Below the pieces are notes generated by a model. It was not told the origin of the DNA. It made no database searches and saw only the letters and a program-made list of their open reading frames with translations. This document shows positions 2,835-50,646 of a stretch of DNA of 64,000 nt, piece by piece. The translations under genes and the position numbers were made by a program. The number at the start of each line of letters is the position of its first letter. The stretch's first letter is position 1. The stretch comes from a bacterium (lineage in GTDB: Bacteria; Patescibacteriota; Minisyncoccia; UBA6257; WO2-44-18), in assembly GCA_030689595.1 (NCBI GenBank), contig JAUYHP010000031.1:22666-86665 (forward strand), written 5' to 3'.

Positions 2835-3923
2835 ATGGCTGACGAACAAAATAACAACCCGGCCCCATTATCAGGCAATAATAATCCTGCACACGATCCG
2901 TTACCGATCGGTGGCCAAGCCCCTAGGCCAAGCGCACCAGCGCCCAAGCCACCTCAAGCAGAAGAGCAACCAAAAGAGGTTCCTCACTCACCGCCACCGC
3001 CACCACCAATAAGGCCCAGAGGAGGTGAATATAGTATCCGCACCATGGAAAGCGATTTAAAAACTGCGCCCAAAGAAGTCCTTCCGCAAAGCGATAGAGA
3101 AGGACCAGCGCCAGCTGAGGCCTCTACTACCATCCAAATGAAAAGCCCAGTTGTTGCAGAAGAAGCACCATCAAAGAAAAATCTTTATTGGATAATCGGC
3201 GGCGTAGTTCTAGCCTTGGCACTAGTAGCCGTTGGCTATTTTGTGGTTTATCCGATGCTAGTAGACAACGGCACAGATACGAGCACTCCTACAACCGGCA
3301 GCACCCCACCAGACACGACTCCGCCCATAACTATGGCAACCCCGGCACATCAATCATATTTCTTGACTAGCCCAGTGCGCGTTAGCGAAATGACCCTCGC
3401 ACCAATAAGCTTGCCCAATATCGCCTTTGGTTTGCAAAGCATTTCACTACAACCATTGGCTAGCGGCTCTACAGAAGAAGTCCTTGTAATCGGTGGTCAA
3501 GAGAATCAAATCCCATTTGCGACCTATATAACTCAATTATTGCCCGATGTGGATAGCAATAAATTATCCGACTTATTAGAAGATGATTTCACGGCCTTTA
3601 TTTACTATGATAACAACGGCTATTGGCCAGGATATGTGGCCAAACTAAAAACTGGCGCTAGCATCGATGATCTAAAGGCTGAGATAACTAAGCTAGAATC
3701 TACCGATCTGGAATCACTATTCATCACACCTCCAGGAACGATATCGGCCTTCAAAGATGGTCTAGCCGCTAACAGTAGCTACGCTACTCGCTACGCCGTA
3801 GGCTCGACTTCGGGGTCGGCTCTAAATTACGGTTATTTTGGAGATTACCTTATAATCTCCACCTCCTATGATGGCCTAACTGCTTCCCTTAATCTGACCG
3901 GGGTGATAGGCTTAATGGAATAA
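2835..3923 (+). CDS. hypothetical membrane-anchored protein, Pro-rich N-terminus, single TM, extracytoplasmic domain
   Basis: PPPPPPIRPRGG stretch, hydrophobic helix WIIGGVVLALALVAVGYFVV. Confidence 0.5.
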   Translation: MADEQNNNPAPLSGNNNPAHDPLPIGGQAPRPSAPAPKPPQAEEQPKEVPHSPPPPPPIRPRGGEYSIRTMESDLKTAPKEVLPQSDREGPAPAEASTTIQMKSPVVAEEAPSKKNLYWIIGGVVLALALVAVGYFVVYPMLVDNGTDTSTPTTGSTPPDTTPPITMATPAHQSYFLTSPVRVSEMTLAPISLPNIAFGLQSISLQPLASGSTEEVLVIGGQENQIPFATYITQLLPDVDSNKLSDLLEDDFTAFIYYDNNGYWPGYVAKLKTGASIDDLKAEITKLESTDLESLFITPPGTISAFKDGLAANSSYATRYAVGSTSGSALNYGYFGDYLIISTSYDGLTASLNLTGVIGLME

Positions 3924-8354: not shown

Positions 8355-8910
8355 GTGTGAAACATCGCGAAAAGTGTGAAACATTGGTTATTTCAGCTTT
8401 ATGGCGAAAATCTCCATAAATAATCGTATTTTATCAAAAATGAGCTCATATAAATGTTTCACACTAGTGTGAAACATTTATATGGCTAAAAATTGCCTGT
8501 AAAGTGTTTGCCGGCAAACACTTTGCGCCAAAATGCGCTACGGTCTGGCGAGATGTTTCACGTGAAACATTTTAATGCTTATTAGCCACATAATGCTGGC
8601 GATGTTTGACGTGAAACATCGGGCATTGGCTTTGTAGTCTTACTCAAACATGTTTCACGGCAAACATCTGTAGCAATCAGCCACAATTGCGCATCAATTG
8701 TTTCACGTGAAACACTGGTGAGATTCCAAGCTATATTCTGGCAAATTGTTTCACGTGAAACATCTGATACCGAAATTAGTGTATAGTGATACTATCTGTT
8801 TACCGGCAAGCATGTGGTCGGAAGCGGTCATGGTCCAACATAAATGTTTCACGTGAAACAATTGTGAAACCTCAAGCTATATTTTAGCCGAATGTTTCAC
8901 GTGAAACATT
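8355..8910. repeat. tandem array of parS-type centromere palindromes (TGTTTCACGTGAAACA) at ~48-bp phasing
   Basis: perfect 16-mers at 8554, 8699, 8747, 8845 and 8893; variants at 8603 (TGTTTGACGTGAAACA), 8651 (TGTTTCACGGCAAACA), 8454-8477 (split palindrome), 8504-8521 and 8797-8812 (degenerate); two direct half-sites GTGTGAAACAT at 8355 and 8374. Confidence 0.85.
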
Positions 8911-8916
8911 CTATAT

Positions 8917-9294
8917 ATGAAAAACACATCTGCTACCGGACAATTGGGCGAGGATCTAGCCTGCGAATATCTCAAGGAAGGGGGATATAAGGTAATCGAT
9001 AGGAATTTTAGGAAGCCGTGGGGAGAATTAGATATTATCGCAAAAAGCAAAGGCGGAGTTTTGGTGTTTGTGGAAGTAAAAACTATCCGGCAATACGGCA
9101 ATGCGGCAATTGAAATTGTCCCAGAAGATAACCTAACTTCAGCTAAGTTAAAAAAGCTTCAACGTACGGCACAGATGTTTGTCGGCAAACACCCAGAATT
9201 AATAAATGACGACAGGGGATGGCAGATAGATCTAATCGCCATAACCTTGTTAGATGATGCCGAACCTAAAATAACCCATTACGAGAATATATAG
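8917..9294 (+). CDS. yraN: YraN-family (UPF0102) endonuclease
   Basis: GEDLACEYL...GELDIIA...LVFVEVKTR pattern of the YraN family. Confidence 0.75.
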   Translation: MKNTSATGQLGEDLACEYLKEGGYKVIDRNFRKPWGELDIIAKSKGGVLVFVEVKTIRQYGNAAIEIVPEDNLTSAKLKKLQRTAQMFVGKHPELINDDRGWQIDLIAITLLDDAEPKITHYENI

Positions 9295-9350: not shown

Positions 9351-9390
9351 TATACCCTACTGCTTTCACATGTGAAAGCAGTAGGGTATA
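9351..9390. repeat. perfect 40-bp palindrome TATACCCTACTGCTTTCACA|TGTGAAAGCAGTAGGGTATA
   Basis: read directly; core TTTCACATGTGAAA resembles the parS core with a 2-bp centre insertion. Confidence 0.8.
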
Positions 9391-9504: not shown

Positions 9505-10014
9505 TTGACAATGCACATTCCGAAAGAAAGCCCCAAAAATTTGAGCGGAAAATCAGCAATACAATGGTCAGAAAAATTATGGGATGAATTATTAGAGAAA
9601 TTGGCTAAGATTGATTCCAAAGATATTTTGAAAGACGTATTAGAAAAACTCATTAGCAACAATGAAAAAGATATGATTTTGCGCAGGCTAGCTGTAGCTG
9701 CCTTGATTCGTGATGGTAAATCTTATCGTGAAATTAGCGAAGCCCTTTGGCTATCCCACCCCACTATAAGTACCATTAAGAAAAATGTATTAGGTGATTC
9801 CAAAAATTATAAAAGTTATCGCTCTTTTTATGGCAGGCCGACTAAATGGAGTAATGACAGCAAAATCCGAAAAGAAACCAATGACGAATTTATCAATATT
9901 ATAAATGACATATCTATGTTAATTGATAAAATATCCAAGACATCGGGTCTGGGGATTCTAAGTTCTCAGGATGCACAAGCATATAGAAAAAGAGTTAGGG
10001 GAGCTAATAAATAA
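9505..10014 (+). CDS. TrpR/YerC/YecD-like helix-turn-helix DNA-binding protein
   Basis: ILRRLAVAALIRDGKSYREISEALWLSHPTISTIKKN resembles the TrpR-family HTH. Confidence 0.55.
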   Translation: MTMHIPKESPKNLSGKSAIQWSEKLWDELLEKLAKIDSKDILKDVLEKLISNNEKDMILRRLAVAALIRDGKSYREISEALWLSHPTISTIKKNVLGDSKNYKSYRSFYGRPTKWSNDSKIRKETNDEFINIINDISMLIDKISKTSGLGILSSQDAQAYRKRVRGANK

Positions 10015-10027
10015 TCACCGAACAAAT

Positions 10028-10061
10028 CCCCACTGCTTTCACATGTGAAAGCAGTAGTGGG
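10028..10061. repeat. second, imperfect copy of the CTGCTTTCACATGTGAAAGCAG palindrome
   Basis: CCCACTGCTTTCACATGTGAAAGCAGTAGTGGG immediately after the TrpR-like stop. Confidence 0.8.
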
Positions 10062-10147: not shown

Positions 10148-10399
10148 TTAAGCAACCAAGATTCTCTCCAGCTCGAAATATGCTTTGAGTACATCAGAAT
10201 CTGATTTTTCTTGAAGATCTGCTCTATTTTGCTCGTCACTTATGCTTAAAAAGAATGCCATATCCATAAGCCGCCTGGTCTGAACTCGGTCTAAATAGTG
10301 CATTCCTGCTCTGTCATAAGCCCAGCTGATTACGGCGTTCGCGAATCTCCTGTCTATATTTTTGTATTTCCTTCTTGTGACGCCGATCTTGAATAACAA
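10148..10399 (-). CDS. hypothetical protein (83 aa); a 45-codon alternative ORF with GGAGG RBS starts at ~10446 on the same strand
   Basis: ORF only; model uncertain. Confidence 0.25.
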   Translation of the reverse strand: MLFKIGVTRRKYKNIDRRFANAVISWAYDRAGMHYLDRVQTRRLMDMAFFLSISDEQNRADLQEKSDSDVLKAYFELERILVA

Positions 10400-10795
10400 A
10401 ACTGATGAAGCAAAGAGCCAAAACTGACGCAGTAAGTATATCCATGACGTCCTCCTATGGTAAGTACATAAATGCTAAAGAACAGAACCCATAACAAGAT
10501 ATCACACAGAGTGCAGTTTTGTCAACCCACCCCACAGTGATTTAGTGCGTGGGGTGGATTGACATTAATATACTACTTGCTATCATATTGTAATATTGAT
10601 ATTTGAAAACAAGAATAAGGATCCACCGATGATCAGATTTTCCCATCTGGTACTGATGTTTTTCGCTGGTATTTTAATTAACGGCCACGCGGTCGGACGA
10701 AAACAACGATATGAGCAAGAATATATTGACTAATCTGCTGCTCTACCCCAAATTAACCAGTCAGTGCAGAACTTGCCACGCAACATGCGGGGGGG

Positions 10796-10824
10796 TTGAC
10801 AAAAAAATCTAGGCATGCTATACT
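10796..10824 (+). promoter_or_regulatory. near-consensus sigma70 promoter TTGACA-17-TATACT preceded by a G7 run
   Basis: -35 at 10796-10801, -10 at 10819-10824. Confidence 0.6.
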
Positions 10825-10830
10825 CTTCTA

Positions 10831-11489
10831 GCGAACGTTGAAATATTGAATATTGTTCATAAGCCGTCAGAGGCAAATGAGCATAGACCCCGAGGCCACA
10901 CATAATGAATCTATATGAATCATAAGGGCTTTCGGGGTCCTTTATTCCTAATAAACAATAAGGTTGTCTGTGGTGCCGCTCTCGAGTGGCACTGGTGCTT
11001 CACCTATCTAGCCTATATGGCTATGGTGGGATATCTAAGGCCGATACAGGAACCAAAAAGACCTCCGGACAGGGGGCGTGAAAGGAGGTGATGGTCTATG
11101 AGCCTGCCGTTCGGTTAGCTTAGGTGGCCCACCCGGCATCGATCAGATAGGATAACGGGTTTGTATATAGCTGTAGCCAGAGGATGCAATCCTCCCCGCC
11201 GTATCTGACGCAGGTGCCAAACGACCGAGCGACGTACGATGATACATAACACCCTGCGCTAGGCCCTCACCGACTGAGGCCGGCGCGCAACCCACCTGCC
11301 CTCAGAGGCGACCCCATGACGAGACGTCTCTAGCGCTCCCCCTGAGCTTATCTCGGGGGGAGCCAACAAAAAAACGACGCACCTGTCGTTGGGTAGTACC
11401 CCAACGACCGCGAATTTAAGCACCCGACCCTCGAAGTCATCTACCAAAGGCGATCAGCCACCGGTACGACTTCGAGGGTCATTTTTTTA
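10831..11489 (+). ncRNA. candidate large (~650 nt) GC-rich structured non-coding transcript of unknown class
   Basis: bounded by consensus promoter and a 13-bp-stem terminator; ~58% GC against ~40% background; no plus-strand ORF over 25 codons; many internal hairpins (e.g. GACCCCGAGG...CTTTCGGGGTC at 10884-10945). Confidence 0.45.
11425..11489 (+). terminator. strong rho-independent terminator
   Basis: GACCCTCGAAGTC ... GACTTCGAGGGTC followed by T7. Confidence 0.7.
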
Positions 11490-11558
11490 TCTGCCCTTTC
11501 TTTTTTCAAAAATATGGTATAATATACACAGCAAATTAGAACCTTATAACAAAATCAA

Positions 11559-13712
11559 ATGTTCCAACTGAACACCGAACTAGCCAAAATAAATGGTATC
11601 GGACAAAAATTTCTGGCTCGACTGGCTAAATTACAAATCAAAACCGTGCGTGATTTGCTCTGGCACTTTCCTTTTAGATATGAAGATTATTCTAAAGTGG
11701 TAAAAATTGACGATTTGCAGATAAATCAATCGGCCACTGTTCGAGCTACAGTACAAAAAATATCTGTCCGCCGCACTTGGCGCCGAAAGATGTTAATCGT
11801 TGAAGCCTTGCTAGTAGACGAAACTGGTGGCATAAAAGCTATTTGGTTCAACCAGCCCTATGTGGCCCAAATTTTAAAAGATGGCGTAGAGGCCAATTTC
11901 GCTGGCAAAGTAACGGCTTCGGATGAGGAAATATATATGTCTAGTCCAGCGTATGAAGTTGTTCGGGGATCCACTAGCGAGACTAAGCATACAGCCGGCC
12001 TAATACCTATCTATCCCGAAACTCGTAGCCTTACTTCCAAGGGTATAAGATTTCTGGTTAAACCAATTTTAAATAATTTAGAAACTATACCCGATTTTGT
12101 CCCCAGTGAAGTTTTAGAATCTAACGATCTGCCCAATATTAATACAGCCCTAAAACGGATACATTTCCCCTTTGCTCTTGAAGATGCCGAAATAGCCCGA
12201 AAGCGCTTCGCTTTTGAAGATCTTTTCTTGCTCCAGCTTAATAATCTAAAGATCCGCCTGCAGCTGGCTAAAGAAAAGGCGCCTCCAATTGCAGTAAGTC
12301 AAAAAGAATTGGACAAGATTATAGCCAGTCTTCCATTCGAGCTGACAGCATCGCAAAAACAAAGCCTGGATGAAATAGTTGCTGACTTATCTAAACCAAT
12401 GCCAATGAATCGATTACTGCAGGGTGATGTCGGTTCTGGCAAAACAGTGATCGTGGCTATAGCTGGAATTATCGCGGCAAAAAATAATAAACAAACAGCC
12501 TTCATGGCCCCGACTGAAGTCCTGGCGCGCCAACATTATCAAACACTCACAAAAATTTTTGGCAAATTAAACGTAGGTATTTGTCTTTTGACCAGTAACG
12601 AAGCTAGGTCGTTTTATGGCGACGACTTAGAGGGCAAACGACAAAAGAGCGAATTATTAAAAGAAATTGAGGATGGTAAAATACAAATCATCATCGGCAC
12701 GCACGCCATCATCTCTTCGTACAAAGGCAAGCCAGTCATGTTTAGAGATCTAGCATTGGCCATTATAGACGAACAGCATCGCTTTGGTGTTGAACAGCGC
12801 GCCGCATTGGTAAAACAAGAAAAAGATAAAGGCGCAGAAACTACCATTCACTTTCTATCCATGAGCGCCACGCCTATACCGCGTACATTATCACTAACAT
12901 TATTTGGCGATCTAGATTTATCTATTATTAATGAACTGCCAAAGGGTCGCAAACCAATTATCACCAAAGTTGTTGATCCAAAGAATAGGCCTAAGGCTTA
13001 TGAATTTATCCGAGAGCACGTTAAAGCAGGCCGGCAAGTCTTCGTAATTTATCCACGCATTGAGCCAAGCTCTAAAGAAAATACTGAATCTAAGATTGTT
13101 AGCGCACGCCAGAAAGTCTGGAATGAGGTTAAAGCCGTTAAAGAAGAATATGAAAAACTATCCACGAAAATCTTTCCCGATCTGAAAGTAGGAATGCTCC
13201 ATGGGAAATTGAAAGCTGCTGAAAAAGAAAAAGTTATGTCAGCTTTTTCTGGTGGCGATTTAAATATTTTAGTTTCGACATCAGTAATCGAAGTAGGAGT
13301 TGACGTGCCTAATGCGACTATTATGGTGATTGAAGGCGCTGACCGATTCGGCTTGTCGCAGCTTTATCAATTTCGCGGTCGAGTTGGGCGTAGCGAGCAT
13401 CAATCGTTCTGCTTCTTGTTCACTGATTCGTCTTCGCAAACCACAGCCCAACGACTCGACGCTTTATTAGAAGCCAAAAATGGTTTCGAGCTGGCGGAGA
13501 AGGATTTGGCCATTCGCGGTCCGGGACAATTCTTGGGCGACAAACAAACTGGCATACCAGATTTGGCTATGCGTGCGCTTAACAACATCGAGCTGATAAA
13601 AACAGCCAGATCGGCTGCAGAAGAAGTTCTGAAAAAAGATCCTACATTGAAAAAACACGCTCCACTCCGTACCAGGCTGAAAGATTTCCAAAAACAAATT
13701 CATTTAGAATGA
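11559..13712 (+). CDS. recG: ATP-dependent DNA helicase RecG
   Basis: N-terminal wedge/OB domain, Walker A GDVGSGKT, DEQHRFGV, QxxGRxGR motifs. Confidence 0.9.
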   Translation: MFQLNTELAKINGIGQKFLARLAKLQIKTVRDLLWHFPFRYEDYSKVVKIDDLQINQSATVRATVQKISVRRTWRRKMLIVEALLVDETGGIKAIWFNQPYVAQILKDGVEANFAGKVTASDEEIYMSSPAYEVVRGSTSETKHTAGLIPIYPETRSLTSKGIRFLVKPILNNLETIPDFVPSEVLESNDLPNINTALKRIHFPFALEDAEIARKRFAFEDLFLLQLNNLKIRLQLAKEKAPPIAVSQKELDKIIASLPFELTASQKQSLDEIVADLSKPMPMNRLLQGDVGSGKTVIVAIAGIIAAKNNKQTAFMAPTEVLARQHYQTLTKIFGKLNVGICLLTSNEARSFYGDDLEGKRQKSELLKEIEDGKIQIIIGTHAIISSYKGKPVMFRDLALAIIDEQHRFGVEQRAALVKQEKDKGAETTIHFLSMSATPIPRTLSLTLFGDLDLSIINELPKGRKPIITKVVDPKNRPKAYEFIREHVKAGRQVFVIYPRIEPSSKENTESKIVSARQKVWNEVKAVKEEYEKLSTKIFPDLKVGMLHGKLKAAEKEKVMSAFSGGDLNILVSTSVIEVGVDVPNATIMVIEGADRFGLSQLYQFRGRVGRSEHQSFCFLFTDSSSQTTAQRLDALLEAKNGFELAEKDLAIRGPGQFLGDKQTGIPDLAMRALNNIELIKTARSAAEEVLKKDPTLKKHAPLRTRLKDFQKQIHLE

Positions 13713-49361: not shown

Positions 49362-49471
49362 TCGATGGCTAGCATAACATATATCAGTTTTACACAAATT
49401 TCAAGATAAATTAAGGCTAGCATGAAAACTGGCAGTCCTGCCTGCTGGTAGGCAGGCGATGAGGTGGGGGG

Positions 49472-49499
49472 TTGACAGATTATGTGGGTATGCTATAAT
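49472..49499 (+). promoter_or_regulatory. consensus sigma70 promoter TTGACA-16-TATAAT preceded by a G6 run
   Basis: -35 at 49472-49477, -10 at 49494-49499. Confidence 0.6.
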
Positions 49500-49634
49500 G
49501 CCACCAGATAGTAGTAAGTAGTTCTTTGAATGTTTTTTGCAGTTACCCATGCGCCGTGTTGGTGTTTGGGGTATGTACTTTCTGTCTGCATTGCTGTTTT
49601 TTGCTGTTTAACGCTTTTAGGAGGCCATAAGACA

Positions 49635-50588
49635 ATGGCCACAAAGGACAAGAAGAAGGCGTCCAACGAGACGCCCGAGACGATCGAGACGATCGAGACT
49701 ACCGCAGCCGCCAGCCGCACCAAACAGCCCCGACCGGAGCGAGCCCTCACGGGCCAAGCTCTGACGGAACTGAGGATCCCGGCATCATTGGCCGAAAAGC
49801 CGGTGACGCCACACGCCTTCAGCGTCGTAAATAAGGCGCTCACGCACCAGCAGCTGGCCCGCTTCATGGGCCAGATGGTGGATACGGCCACGGCCAACGT
49901 GGTCGAAGTGGTAGCCGGGTTCGAAGCTGACACCCTCAGCTTCGAACCGGATGTCCGAGTCGGTCAGGAGTTCTACTCGGAAACGAGTGGACGCCTGTCC
50001 ACCGGCGAAGACAACACGGCGGCGCTCAGCATCGGTGGAGAGGCCCACGGCGGCCTCCAGCTGACGCTGGCGCAGGTGACTCCGCTCTTGGAGGAGTTCC
50101 GGGAGCAGCTCGCGCAGGAGCGCGAGGAAAAGCAGGCGGTCTACGCATTCGCCGACGACGGCGATAAGACGTCCTGCTACCTCGCCGCCGACTGCGGCAC
50201 CAAGTCGTTCCATCCTCGCAGCCTCAACGTGGTGCGGTGGCGGAATGGCGAGGCGACCATCGTCAACGACGAGACAGGTAAGCCGAGACGCATCGGCAGC
50301 TACCGTGCCGTCGAAGTTGACGGAGTCCTGATATGTGTGGCCTTCTGCCCGAGCTGCATCAACGCAGCGAGGAAGAACCACCAGCTCGACAGCCGGTTCT
50401 TCACGTCGGAGGACGTGGATGCCCTCATCAAGAGGCGGTTGGCCCAGGCCAACAGGCAGGCCGATCGCATCTCTGGGCTCGAGAATGCCCTCGGACCGCG
50501 CACCGATCGCAACGACCGCGGAACCAGCGGCTGGAAACCCCGCTTCAAGAAGCAGCGGGGGACGCACGGCGGATCTGTCCGCCGCTGA
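49635..50588 (+). CDS. hypothetical protein (317 aa) in a ~62% GC foreign-looking islet; start chosen at the ATG with AGGAGG RBS (the ORF opens at 49530)
   Basis: AGGAGG-9nt-ATG; protein-like composition, whereas the antisense 269-aa ORF is R/A/G/P-rich and judged spurious. Confidence 0.5.
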   Translation: MATKDKKKASNETPETIETIETTAAASRTKQPRPERALTGQALTELRIPASLAEKPVTPHAFSVVNKALTHQQLARFMGQMVDTATANVVEVVAGFEADTLSFEPDVRVGQEFYSETSGRLSTGEDNTAALSIGGEAHGGLQLTLAQVTPLLEEFREQLAQEREEKQAVYAFADDGDKTSCYLAADCGTKSFHPRSLNVVRWRNGEATIVNDETGKPRRIGSYRAVEVDGVLICVAFCPSCINAARKNHQLDSRFFTSEDVDALIKRRLAQANRQADRISGLENALGPRTDRNDRGTSGWKPRFKKQRGTHGGSVRR

Positions 50589-50597
50589 ACACAACCC

Positions 50598-50646
50598 AGA
50601 GAGGAGAAGGAGAAGTTTTTCTTCTCCTCTCTGGGTATTTTTTTCT
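50598..50646 (+). terminator. rho-independent terminator
   Basis: AGAGAGGAGAAG...CTTCTCCTCTCT + GGGTATTTTTTT. Confidence 0.55.

Follow-up and report, generated by a model that had tools for sequence, protein, structure and literature searches.

A conserved mini-ORF behind an extended Shine-Dalgarno sequence in a GC-rich transcription unit upstream of recG in Parcubacteria

In this study, we describe a transcription unit located upstream of recG in a 64-kb stretch of DNA (64,000 nucleotides of contig JAUYHP010000031.1, assembly GCA_030689595.1; the whole stretch is referred to here as the window) from a member of the Parcubacteria, which belong to the candidate phyla radiation (CPR). The unit spans positions 10796-11488. 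As judged from comparison with related genomes, the only evolutionarily maintained core of its transcript is a mini open reading frame (mini-ORF) of six to seven codons behind an unusually long Shine-Dalgarno (SD) sequence, and this frame defines a new, small family of conserved mini-ORFs in Parcubacteria. A first-pass annotation of the same DNA had proposed that the unit specifies a large structured RNA of the ornate or ribozyme-like kind, and the comparative evidence does not support that proposal. We favor, with somewhat less than even confidence, a cis-acting mini-ORF that would load or pause ribosomes in a fast-evolving structured transcript.

Results

A conserved mini-ORF and its Shine-Dalgarno sequence

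The mini-ORF of the window, ATG AGC CTG CCG TTC GGT TAG (11098-11118, plus strand), encodes MSLPFG and has orthologues in six other genomes. Its SD sequence, the 12-nt AAAGGAGGTGAT (11081-11092, plus strand), ends 5 nt before the ATG and is complementary to the 3′ tail of 16S rRNA over 11-12 nt, a canonical tail being assumed because the window contains no 16S gene. This is the strongest SD sequence in the window and the only site of its kind in 64 kb. When the long ORFs of the window were compared under the same assumption, the mini-ORF alone showed a complementarity of at least 8 nt. For approximately 46 of the 50 long ORFs it stayed below 6 nt, also when other starts in the same frame were considered; the host genome seems to start translation largely without SD pairing. 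Upstream of the SD sequence, an ACCUCC segment (11061-11066, plus strand) is predicted to pair with its GGAGGU in both the minimum free energy and the centroid folds. The sequence GGGCGUGAAAGGAGGUGA, which had been likened in the first-pass annotation to the P10-P12 region of RNase P RNA, is actually the SD sequence of this mini-ORF.

Our comparison set consisted of RecG-anchored loci from 80 species genomes, all Patescibacteria/Parcubacteria, to which further RecG relatives from Logan and ENA contigs were added; of these, L081, L083, L087 and L089 were informative, and L084-L086 and L097-L103 have no intact mini-ORF of this kind. Five of the orthologues (L001, L006, L011, L060 and L089) lie in loci that were fetched by RecG similarity only and not by the mini-ORF pattern, and all five contain ATG GGN MGN YKN CCN TWY GGN and a stop codon behind AGGAGG. 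According to our calculation, which assumes uniform base frequencies, approximately 1e-3 chance matches to this degenerate pattern are expected on both strands of the ~0.65 Mb concerned. The peptide is MGRCPYG in L089 (position 388), L001 (position 2403) and L011 (position 3754), MGRCPFG in L006 (position 1057), and MGRLPYG in L060, where AAAGGAGGTGA precedes ATG GGC AGG CTG CCC TAT GGC TAG. A scan of metagenomes with the pattern returned, besides false positives, two additional true loci, namely L090/L094, which is the same as L006, and L096, which encodes MGRCPYG and ends in TAA. The same scan of viral contigs found none.

The differences among the seven sequences are distributed as expected for a translated frame. 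Third positions vary in all six sense codons; arginine is encoded by CGT, CGG or AGG; TAG, TGA and TAA are all used as stops; changes at second positions are limited to Cys/Leu and Tyr/Phe; and the differences in length are in frame. Conservation is confined to the SD sequence and the mini-ORF, and the flanks cannot be aligned. Because the third positions are free, three different stops are used and the frame is kept, selection appears to act on translation and on the peptide. On these comparisons, the pattern is that of a translated frame in which the peptide sequence counts, and not that of an RNA helix: the SD sequence, start, frame and stop are conserved, and variation is concentrated at synonymous sites.

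A conserved peptide with very strong translation signals also speaks for an mRNA of a free functional hexa- or heptapeptide, which might serve as a signal, metal-binding or inhibitory peptide. We regard this explanation as quite improbable, since Cys and Arg are not both kept in the window or in L060. Moreover, in the degenerate mini-ORF of L087, which is truncated in frame to MPG-stop and has the same post-stop context as L089, what is retained is not the peptide but the SD sequence, the start, the stop and the context behind it. We know of essentially no directly translated functional peptides of 6-7 residues in bacteria, and the short peptides known to act as signals arise by cleavage of longer precursors.

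Five genomes (L089, L001, L006, L011 and L096) have a hairpin with a folding energy of -20 to -36 kcal/mol that begins 4-8 nt past the stop codon. When the 75 nt behind the stop were folded, such a hairpin was obtained in five of eight sequences, and no conserved alternative pairing was found. The 5′ arms of the hairpins in L089, L011 and L001 follow the pattern GCYYCGR, and pairing is kept through changes on both sides; in L006 only, the hairpin is the terminator itself. Every related unit has a GC-rich hairpin and a T-run terminator before the recG promoter, 33-370 nt past the stop of the mini-ORF. Continuation of the frame by read-through or frameshifting was rejected, as the translated continuations differ among L089, L001, L087 and L011, and selenocysteine at the stop codon is excluded by the use of TAG and TAA. 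Our search of the literature found nothing relevant on structured RNAs of CPR bacteria, on the peptide sequence of the mini-ORF or on leader peptides of Parcubacteria.

The transcription unit

A sigma-70-type promoter, TTGACA-17-TATACT (10796-10824, plus strand), opens the unit, with TGC directly 5′ of the -10 hexamer and a run of seven G in front of it (10789-10795). The unit is closed by an intrinsic terminator (11426-11488, plus strand) with a 13-bp stem, a 29-nt loop and seven T; its arms are GACCCTCGAAGTC (11426-11438) and GACTTCGAGGGTC (11468-11480), the T run occupies 11482-11488, and 70 nt separate its end from the recG ATG (11559). The first-pass annotation had described both signals correctly. 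Only two perfect TTGACA-N16/17-TATAMT sites occur in 64 kb, this promoter and one at 49472. Near the start of the transcript, the motif GAACGTTGA (10833-10841, plus strand) conforms to a consensus, GAAYRTTGA, that can be read directly in the window and in L083 (GAACATTGA), L081 (GAATGTTGA) and L060 (GAACATTAA), 8-15 nt past the -10 hexamer.

The GC content is 41% in the first ~145 transcribed nucleotides, 56.7% in 10976-11488 and 59% in 11119-11425, compared with 42.9% for the window. A GC-rich body is therefore present as the first-pass annotation had stated, although the 58% it gave for the whole segment (10796-11489) has to be corrected to 52%. A self-similarity comparison within the 64 kb showed the unit to be single-copy, and a Logan contig that was reached via the neighbouring 34-aa ORF is identical to the window and thus gives no strain variation. 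From its sequence, the segment is an independent unit of transcription that looks non-coding and runs from a strong promoter to an intrinsic terminator.

The claim that no plus-strand ORF exceeds about 25 codons was wrong, as a 58-codon ORF starting with ATG (10915-11091) and a 60-codon ORF starting with TTG (11389-11571) are present; the 62-codon ORF of the minus strand is there as described (11259-11447). The broader point, that the unit lacks long coding capacity, nevertheless held in every test applied. No ORF of the unit matches Pfam, the 58-codon and 62-codon ORFs are called neither in the NCBI record nor in the Logan assemblies, and the ORFs of the unit were missing from the 15-billion-protein collection that was searched. 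A tblastx comparison of the unit with all regions upstream of recG returned the mini-ORF region of L060 as its sole match. Furthermore, 3-nt periodicity, measured as phase-specific GC content, is absent from the unit (p = 0.13-0.78), whereas recG and a GC-rich 317-aa ORF of the window, used as controls, both gave p < 0.001.

The transcript can be divided into two hairpin-rich parts on either side of the mini-ORF. The 5′ part (10831-11060, plus strand) is a lineage-specific leader (fold z = -2.4) with no homology at the DNA or protein level and no codon periodicity. The 3′ part (11119-11425, plus strand) is the GC-rich body, at 59% GC, with perfect hairpins at 11335-11363 and 11385-11408; its fold z is -3.7, against -2.9 when the minus strand is folded. 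The z of -7.8 obtained for the whole unit is inflated because shuffling mixes the AT-rich with the GC-rich part, and the compositionally homogeneous parts give -3.7 (3′) and -2.4 (5′). The minus strand folds to a comparable degree (z = -4.7 and -2.9).

Outside the mini-ORF, similarity to the relatives is sparse. When the unit was compared with the 80 RecG-anchored loci by blastn and nhmmer, the recG promoter region alone aligned, at 86% over 49 nt between the window and L060, which is the nearest relative. A global MAFFT alignment of the unit with L060 was uninformative, an all-against-all comparison of the units yielded matches in the mini-ORF and promoter regions alone, and blastn at its "distant" setting found no match for the unit in phage and plasmid collections. 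In Smith-Waterman comparisons with shuffled controls, the 5′ part of the window unit stayed at shuffle level and matched nothing. The same method detected one block of ~48 nt shared with L060 (11290-11336, plus strand), with a local score of 33 against a shuffle mean of 19.4 (standard deviation 3.0), a score reached by none of 200 shuffles; this block is known from two sequences only. What the relatives have in common is thus the SD sequence with the mini-ORF, this block in the nearest relative and the neighbouring recG promoter, and nothing else. Judged by these searches, the body of the unit is lineage-specific and neither coding nor conserved.

As a separate observation, the shared block contains a possible second mini-ORF (11316-11333), GAGG-N8-ATGACGAGACGTCTCTAG, encoding MTRRL. 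Its counterpart in L060 (~3711-3737) is GAGG-N6-ATGAAGAAAAATCGCGATTTTCTCTAG, encoding MKKNRDFL; with only two sequences, this frame is not established.

Known RNA families and the large-RNA proposal

A search of the window with Rfam 15 at gathering thresholds returned tRNAs only, and at E<=10 the region 10400-11700 gave only chance-level matches to small nucleolar RNAs and microRNAs. The related units likewise gave tRNAs and chance-level matches only. RNase P RNA of types A and B had no covariance-model match, either at the gathering score in the window or at E<=10 in 10400-11700, and the same is true of OLE, GOLLD, ROOL, HEARO, raiA and all other families of Rfam 15. ARAGORN found seven tRNAs and no transfer-messenger RNA (tmRNA) in the window. 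The first-pass annotation, which had been unable to match the segment to tmRNA or RNase P RNA, was right on this point, and the covariance-model searches leave its suggestion that the unit belongs to no described RNA family standing; on the present sequence searches, it belongs to none.

Several other candidates were considered and rejected. The mini-ORF is not a tmRNA tag frame, as it carries an SD sequence and an ATG, which tag frames do not have. For a CsrA sponge, a type I toxin-antitoxin system, a retron, a diversity-generating retroelement or an alternative genetic code, there was no supporting reverse transcriptase gene, repeat pattern, antisense overlap or single-type stop pattern.

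A lineage-specific large structured noncoding RNA might act in trans, for example by sequestering a protein or as a scaffold. The mini-ORF would in that case be an incidental feature or part of a dual-function RNA. The main argument for this explanation is the high GC content (57-59%) of a non-coding stretch in a 43% GC genome, for which the reading we prefer offers no explanation. In addition, the unit has its own strong promoter and terminator, it contains several perfect hairpins, its folding energy lies below all or nearly all shuffles, the related units are likewise GC-richer than their genomes, and the 48-nt block is common to the window and L060. The relatives, however, keep the slot, the promoter and the 5′ start but not the ~650-nt body. 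The body cannot be aligned even where RecG is 83% identical, although the alignment of the neighbouring recG promoter reaches 86%; in L060, the GC-rich region is a small protein-coding gene (family X, see below) upstream of the mini-ORF and is not homologous to that of the window; folding is equally good on the minus strand; and no Rfam match supports a known fold. The first-pass annotation had itself named a lack of conservation in relatives as the observation that would count against its proposal, and this is largely what we found. We therefore consider such an RNA unlikely.

Turnover of the slot upstream of recG

The nearest relative, L060 (JAUYMR010000020.1), whose RecG is 83% identical over the available N-terminal part, has a TTGACA-N16-TATAAT promoter in the same slot. 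This is followed by ~600 nt with a GC content of 54-65% and by a terminator, behind which the recG promoter is located. A promoter of the style TTGACA-N16-18-(A)TGCTAT.. heads the units at this position in L060, L083, L001, L011, L006 and L096. Because the promoter style and the GAAYRTTGA motif are common to them, we consider the 5′ ends of the four nearest units, those of the window, L060, L081 and L083, to be orthologous. Behind this shared 5′ end, however, L083 has a 35-codon ORF, L081 a 71-codon ORF and L060 a 96-codon ORF, whereas nothing recognisable follows in the window. The GC-rich region of L060 is a gene of family X upstream of the mini-ORF, and that of the window lies downstream of it; since the two are on opposite sides of the mini-ORF and that of L060 is the X gene, the bodies are not considered homologous.

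Two families of small proteins recur in the slot in Parcubacteria. Both are unannotated and have strong SD sequences and elevated GC content. Family X (~60-96 aa; motif ..EELWEEELK..R.RSAERAAI..DRP..DP) is present in L060 (3310-3600), L081 (60-275), L087 (~565-768), L096 (613-795) and L101 (1845-2039), and its members have no Pfam match. Family Y (~55-86 aa; motif ..W..KSLKKLG..RV) occurs in L011 (~3362-3547), L006 (~700-880) and L096 (311-571). Hidden Markov models of both families found no trace of either in the window unit. Other small ORFs occupy the slot in L083 and L098, and tRNA genes often flank it. Between the X gene and the recG promoter of L096 (880-1000), we also noted an SD-led 12-codon ORF (MCSLQQTPSFLP followed by a stop) and a terminator, with a sub-threshold Rfam match to Phe_leader (28.3 bits, E = 0.86) that probably reflects a generic leader-plus-terminator architecture.

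This rapid exchange of contents raises a further explanation, namely that the slot is a hotspot for small, GC-rich, SD-bearing and strongly promoted cassettes, possibly acquired horizontally, and that the body in the window is a functionless remnant of one of them. The distribution of families X and Y, the other small ORFs and the flanking tRNA genes are consistent with it, and so is a second island (49472-50640) of the window, which combines a promoter of this type with an AGGAGG and a GC content of 82% at third codon positions (GC3) and belongs to no known family. However, the body contains no residual codon periodicity of the kind found in real genes, and it resembles neither X, Y nor any other translated sequence of the loci, nor anything in the phage and plasmid collections. 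Moreover, a neutral sequence should lose its high GC content over time in an AT-biased genome, and the promoter, SD sequence, mini-ORF and terminator are all intact. Decayed cargo thus seems to us an improbable account of the unit.

Relation to recG

The recG gene has its own promoter, an extended -10 element (TGGTATAAT, 11515-11523, plus strand) that lies outside the unit. In most close relatives, TGnTATAATA is found 15-65 nt before the recG ATG, and it is kept in loci without a unit as well (L084, L097, L098, L002 and L007). The sequence of this promoter region (11515-11558 and ~24 related loci) can be summarized as TG(G/T)TATAATATA(G/T).CAA.., with a very short leader that lacks an SD sequence.

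In all seven genomes, recG is preceded by the mini-ORF in the same orientation, and an intrinsic terminator separates the two. This arrangement is what speaks for a leader-peptide attenuator, in which formation of the terminator, and with it the passage of RNA polymerase into recG, would depend on translation of the mini-ORF, and in L006 the terminator stem begins only 7 nt past the stop, where a terminating ribosome could block it. Nevertheless, attenuation of recG in the classic sense is unlikely, because recG has its own promoter, which follows the terminator and is conserved whether or not a locus contains the unit, and because other genes intervene in L096, where two small genes and a promoter lie between the mini-ORF and recG; in L006, one further ORF does so. 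In addition, the distance from stop to terminator varies from 33 to 370 nt, and inspection and folding found no conserved antiterminator alternative. The link between the unit and recG looks like a conserved neighbourhood.

Other features of the window

Upstream of the unit, an array of at least nine copies of the perfect palindrome ATGTTTCACGTGAAACAT (variants TGTTTGCCGGCAAACA) extends over 8447-8909, with a further element at 9174-9192 and a spacing of ~48 nt. The array is located between a 200-aa ORF of the minus strand and yraN, similar palindromes occur upstream of yraN in L060, and it looks like an operator array or an iteron field of the replication or partition type. A 30-nt palindrome, CCCTACTGCTTTCACATGTGAAAGCAGTAGGG, flanks a gene for a TrpR-family helix-turn-helix protein (9505-10014) with two copies (9355-9386 and 10028-10057), and its core, TTTCACATGTGAAA, resembles the core of the array.

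Two divergent ORFs for small hydrophobic proteins precede the unit, one of 43 aa on the minus strand (10314-10445; MDILTASVLALCFISFVIQ...) and one of 34 aa on the plus strand (10630-10733; MIRFSHLVLMFFAGILINGH...). They are read from promoter-like sites (10525-10496 and 10559-10586) arranged around the hairpin CCCACCCCACAG..GTGGGGTGG, and both ORFs are called as genes in a Logan assembly.

The second island, taken in full (49461-50640), consists of a promoter (GGGGGGTTGACA-N16-TATAAT), a leader of ~140 nt, an AGGAGG, the 317-aa ORF and a terminator. The ORF (49635-50588) has a GC content of 65-69% and a GC3 of 82%, belongs to no Pfam family and corresponds to the hypothetical protein MDP2696211.1, which forms a singleton cluster. 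The gene may have been acquired horizontally.

Discussion

Taken together, the conserved SD sequence and peptide and the unconserved body lead us to prefer the cis-acting mini-ORF introduced above. According to this model, the very strong extended SD sequence, predicted in the window to be masked by the upstream ACCUCC, would capture a ribosome, which would translate the short peptide and dwell at P-(Y/F)-G-stop before the structured segment or hairpin. What becomes of the transcript would then depend on occupancy by the ribosome, which might shield the GC-rich RNA further downstream from decay or alter the way it folds. The GC-rich hairpins on both sides of the mini-ORF would represent a lineage-specific scaffold with fast turnover and not a conserved catalytic or ornate fold.

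Several observations weigh against this model. The mini-ORF is dispensable, being absent from L083 and L097-L103 and reduced in L087, L081 and L101: apart from the MPG of L087, L081 and L101 have possible degenerate frames of M-stop and MR-stop, respectively, and none was found in L083, L084-L086 or L097-L103 other than the possible MR remnant of L101. The family has seven members only, and the window copy is the most divergent of them, with no Arg codon, Leu in place of Cys and a longer spacing between SD sequence and ATG; it is missed by a DNA profile of the other six copies. Its membership is indicated by pairwise similarity to L060, with near-identity of the 12-nt SD sequence, by its position and by the ending LP(F/Y)G-stop. 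Furthermore, the post-stop hairpin is weak or displaced in the window and L060, the variable distance from stop to terminator keeps no single geometry, and the persistent high GC content of a non-coding stretch, in a genome of 43% GC, suggests that the RNA body may itself be under selection, for which the model does not account.

A more specific version can be proposed, which we offer as a rather doubtful extension. MGRCP(Y/F)G-stop, represented in the window by MSLPFG-stop, could be a new nascent-peptide element of CPR bacteria, a lineage that makes little use of SD sequences, in which the extended SD sequence would capture the ribosome and the heptapeptide would hold it at the stop codon before the hairpin. 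The peptide-level conservation of so short an ORF would be an indirect signature of such an arrest. A family of small GC-rich transcripts might thus be under the control of a ribosome-occupancy switch, or of an element that senses translation status or free anti-SD.

If the preferred model is true, a candidate giant ribozyme would give way to ultra-short translated frames under peptide selection in uncultivated CPR bacteria. The rules of translation initiation in these bacteria are poorly known, and ultra-short frames represent an under-explored layer. A lone 12-nt SD sequence in an SD-poor genome provides a testable handle on whether the ribosomes of Parcubacteria use the anti-SD at all, and whether it serves them in regulation, as it does for rpsU in Flavobacteriia. 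The case also calls for caution: GC-rich, ORF-free units running from promoter to terminator in AT-rich genomes are not by themselves evidence of conserved structured RNAs, and in the present case nothing of the GC-rich body is retained as such between two species with RecG proteins that are still 83% identical.

Comparison with known systems

With large ornate noncoding RNAs (OLE, GOLLD, ROOL, HEARO and raiA), RNase P RNA and tmRNA, the unit shares its size of ~650 nt, its GC enrichment, its own promoter and terminator and its many hairpins. It differs from them in having no covariance-model match at E<=10, no tRNA-like domain and no conserved core. Dual-function small RNAs (RNAIII/hld, SgrS/SgrT and SR1/SR1P) resemble it as structured transcripts with a short translated frame. 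However, their peptides have 26-43 residues and their RNA bodies are conserved, whereas the peptide here has 6-7 residues and the body is not conserved.

The nearest precedents are short regulatory leader peptides, RNA stabilisers of the SD or stalled-ribosome type and the lone strong SD sequence of rpsU. The short leader or arrest peptides (ErmCL/ErmBL, CatA86L, CmlAL, TnaC and pyrL-type) are similar in that a very short ORF with a good ribosome-binding site encodes a peptide under selection, and in that a hairpin and an intrinsic terminator follow closely and a co-oriented gene lies downstream. Neither MGRCP(Y/F)G nor MSLPFG, however, has a sequence relationship to any of these peptides, recG has its own promoter, and no conserved antiterminator or anti-SD pairing was found here.

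The STAB-SD of cryIIIA and the ermC leader, both of Firmicutes, are alike in placing a GAAAGGAGG-type sequence perfectly complementary to the 16S tail, without a long ORF, upstream of a structured RNA. The SD sequence described here has the sequence properties of such a stabiliser, with its complementarity of 11-12 nt, its uniqueness in the window and no long ORF that it serves. The difference is that a conserved peptide-coding frame follows it, and its stabilising effect is putative.

Finally, the work on rpsU of Flavobacteriia (PMC9976891, PMC7797042) describes a lone strong SD sequence in a setting where the anti-SD is normally sequestered. There, as in the window, one extended SD sequence stands out in an SD-poor genome. 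In our case, it serves an ORF of 6-7 codons and not a ribosomal protein gene, and the 16S tail is assumed to be canonical. By analogy with rpsU, the lone extended SD sequence of the mini-ORF suggests that access to the 3′ tail of 16S rRNA may be what is being read out.

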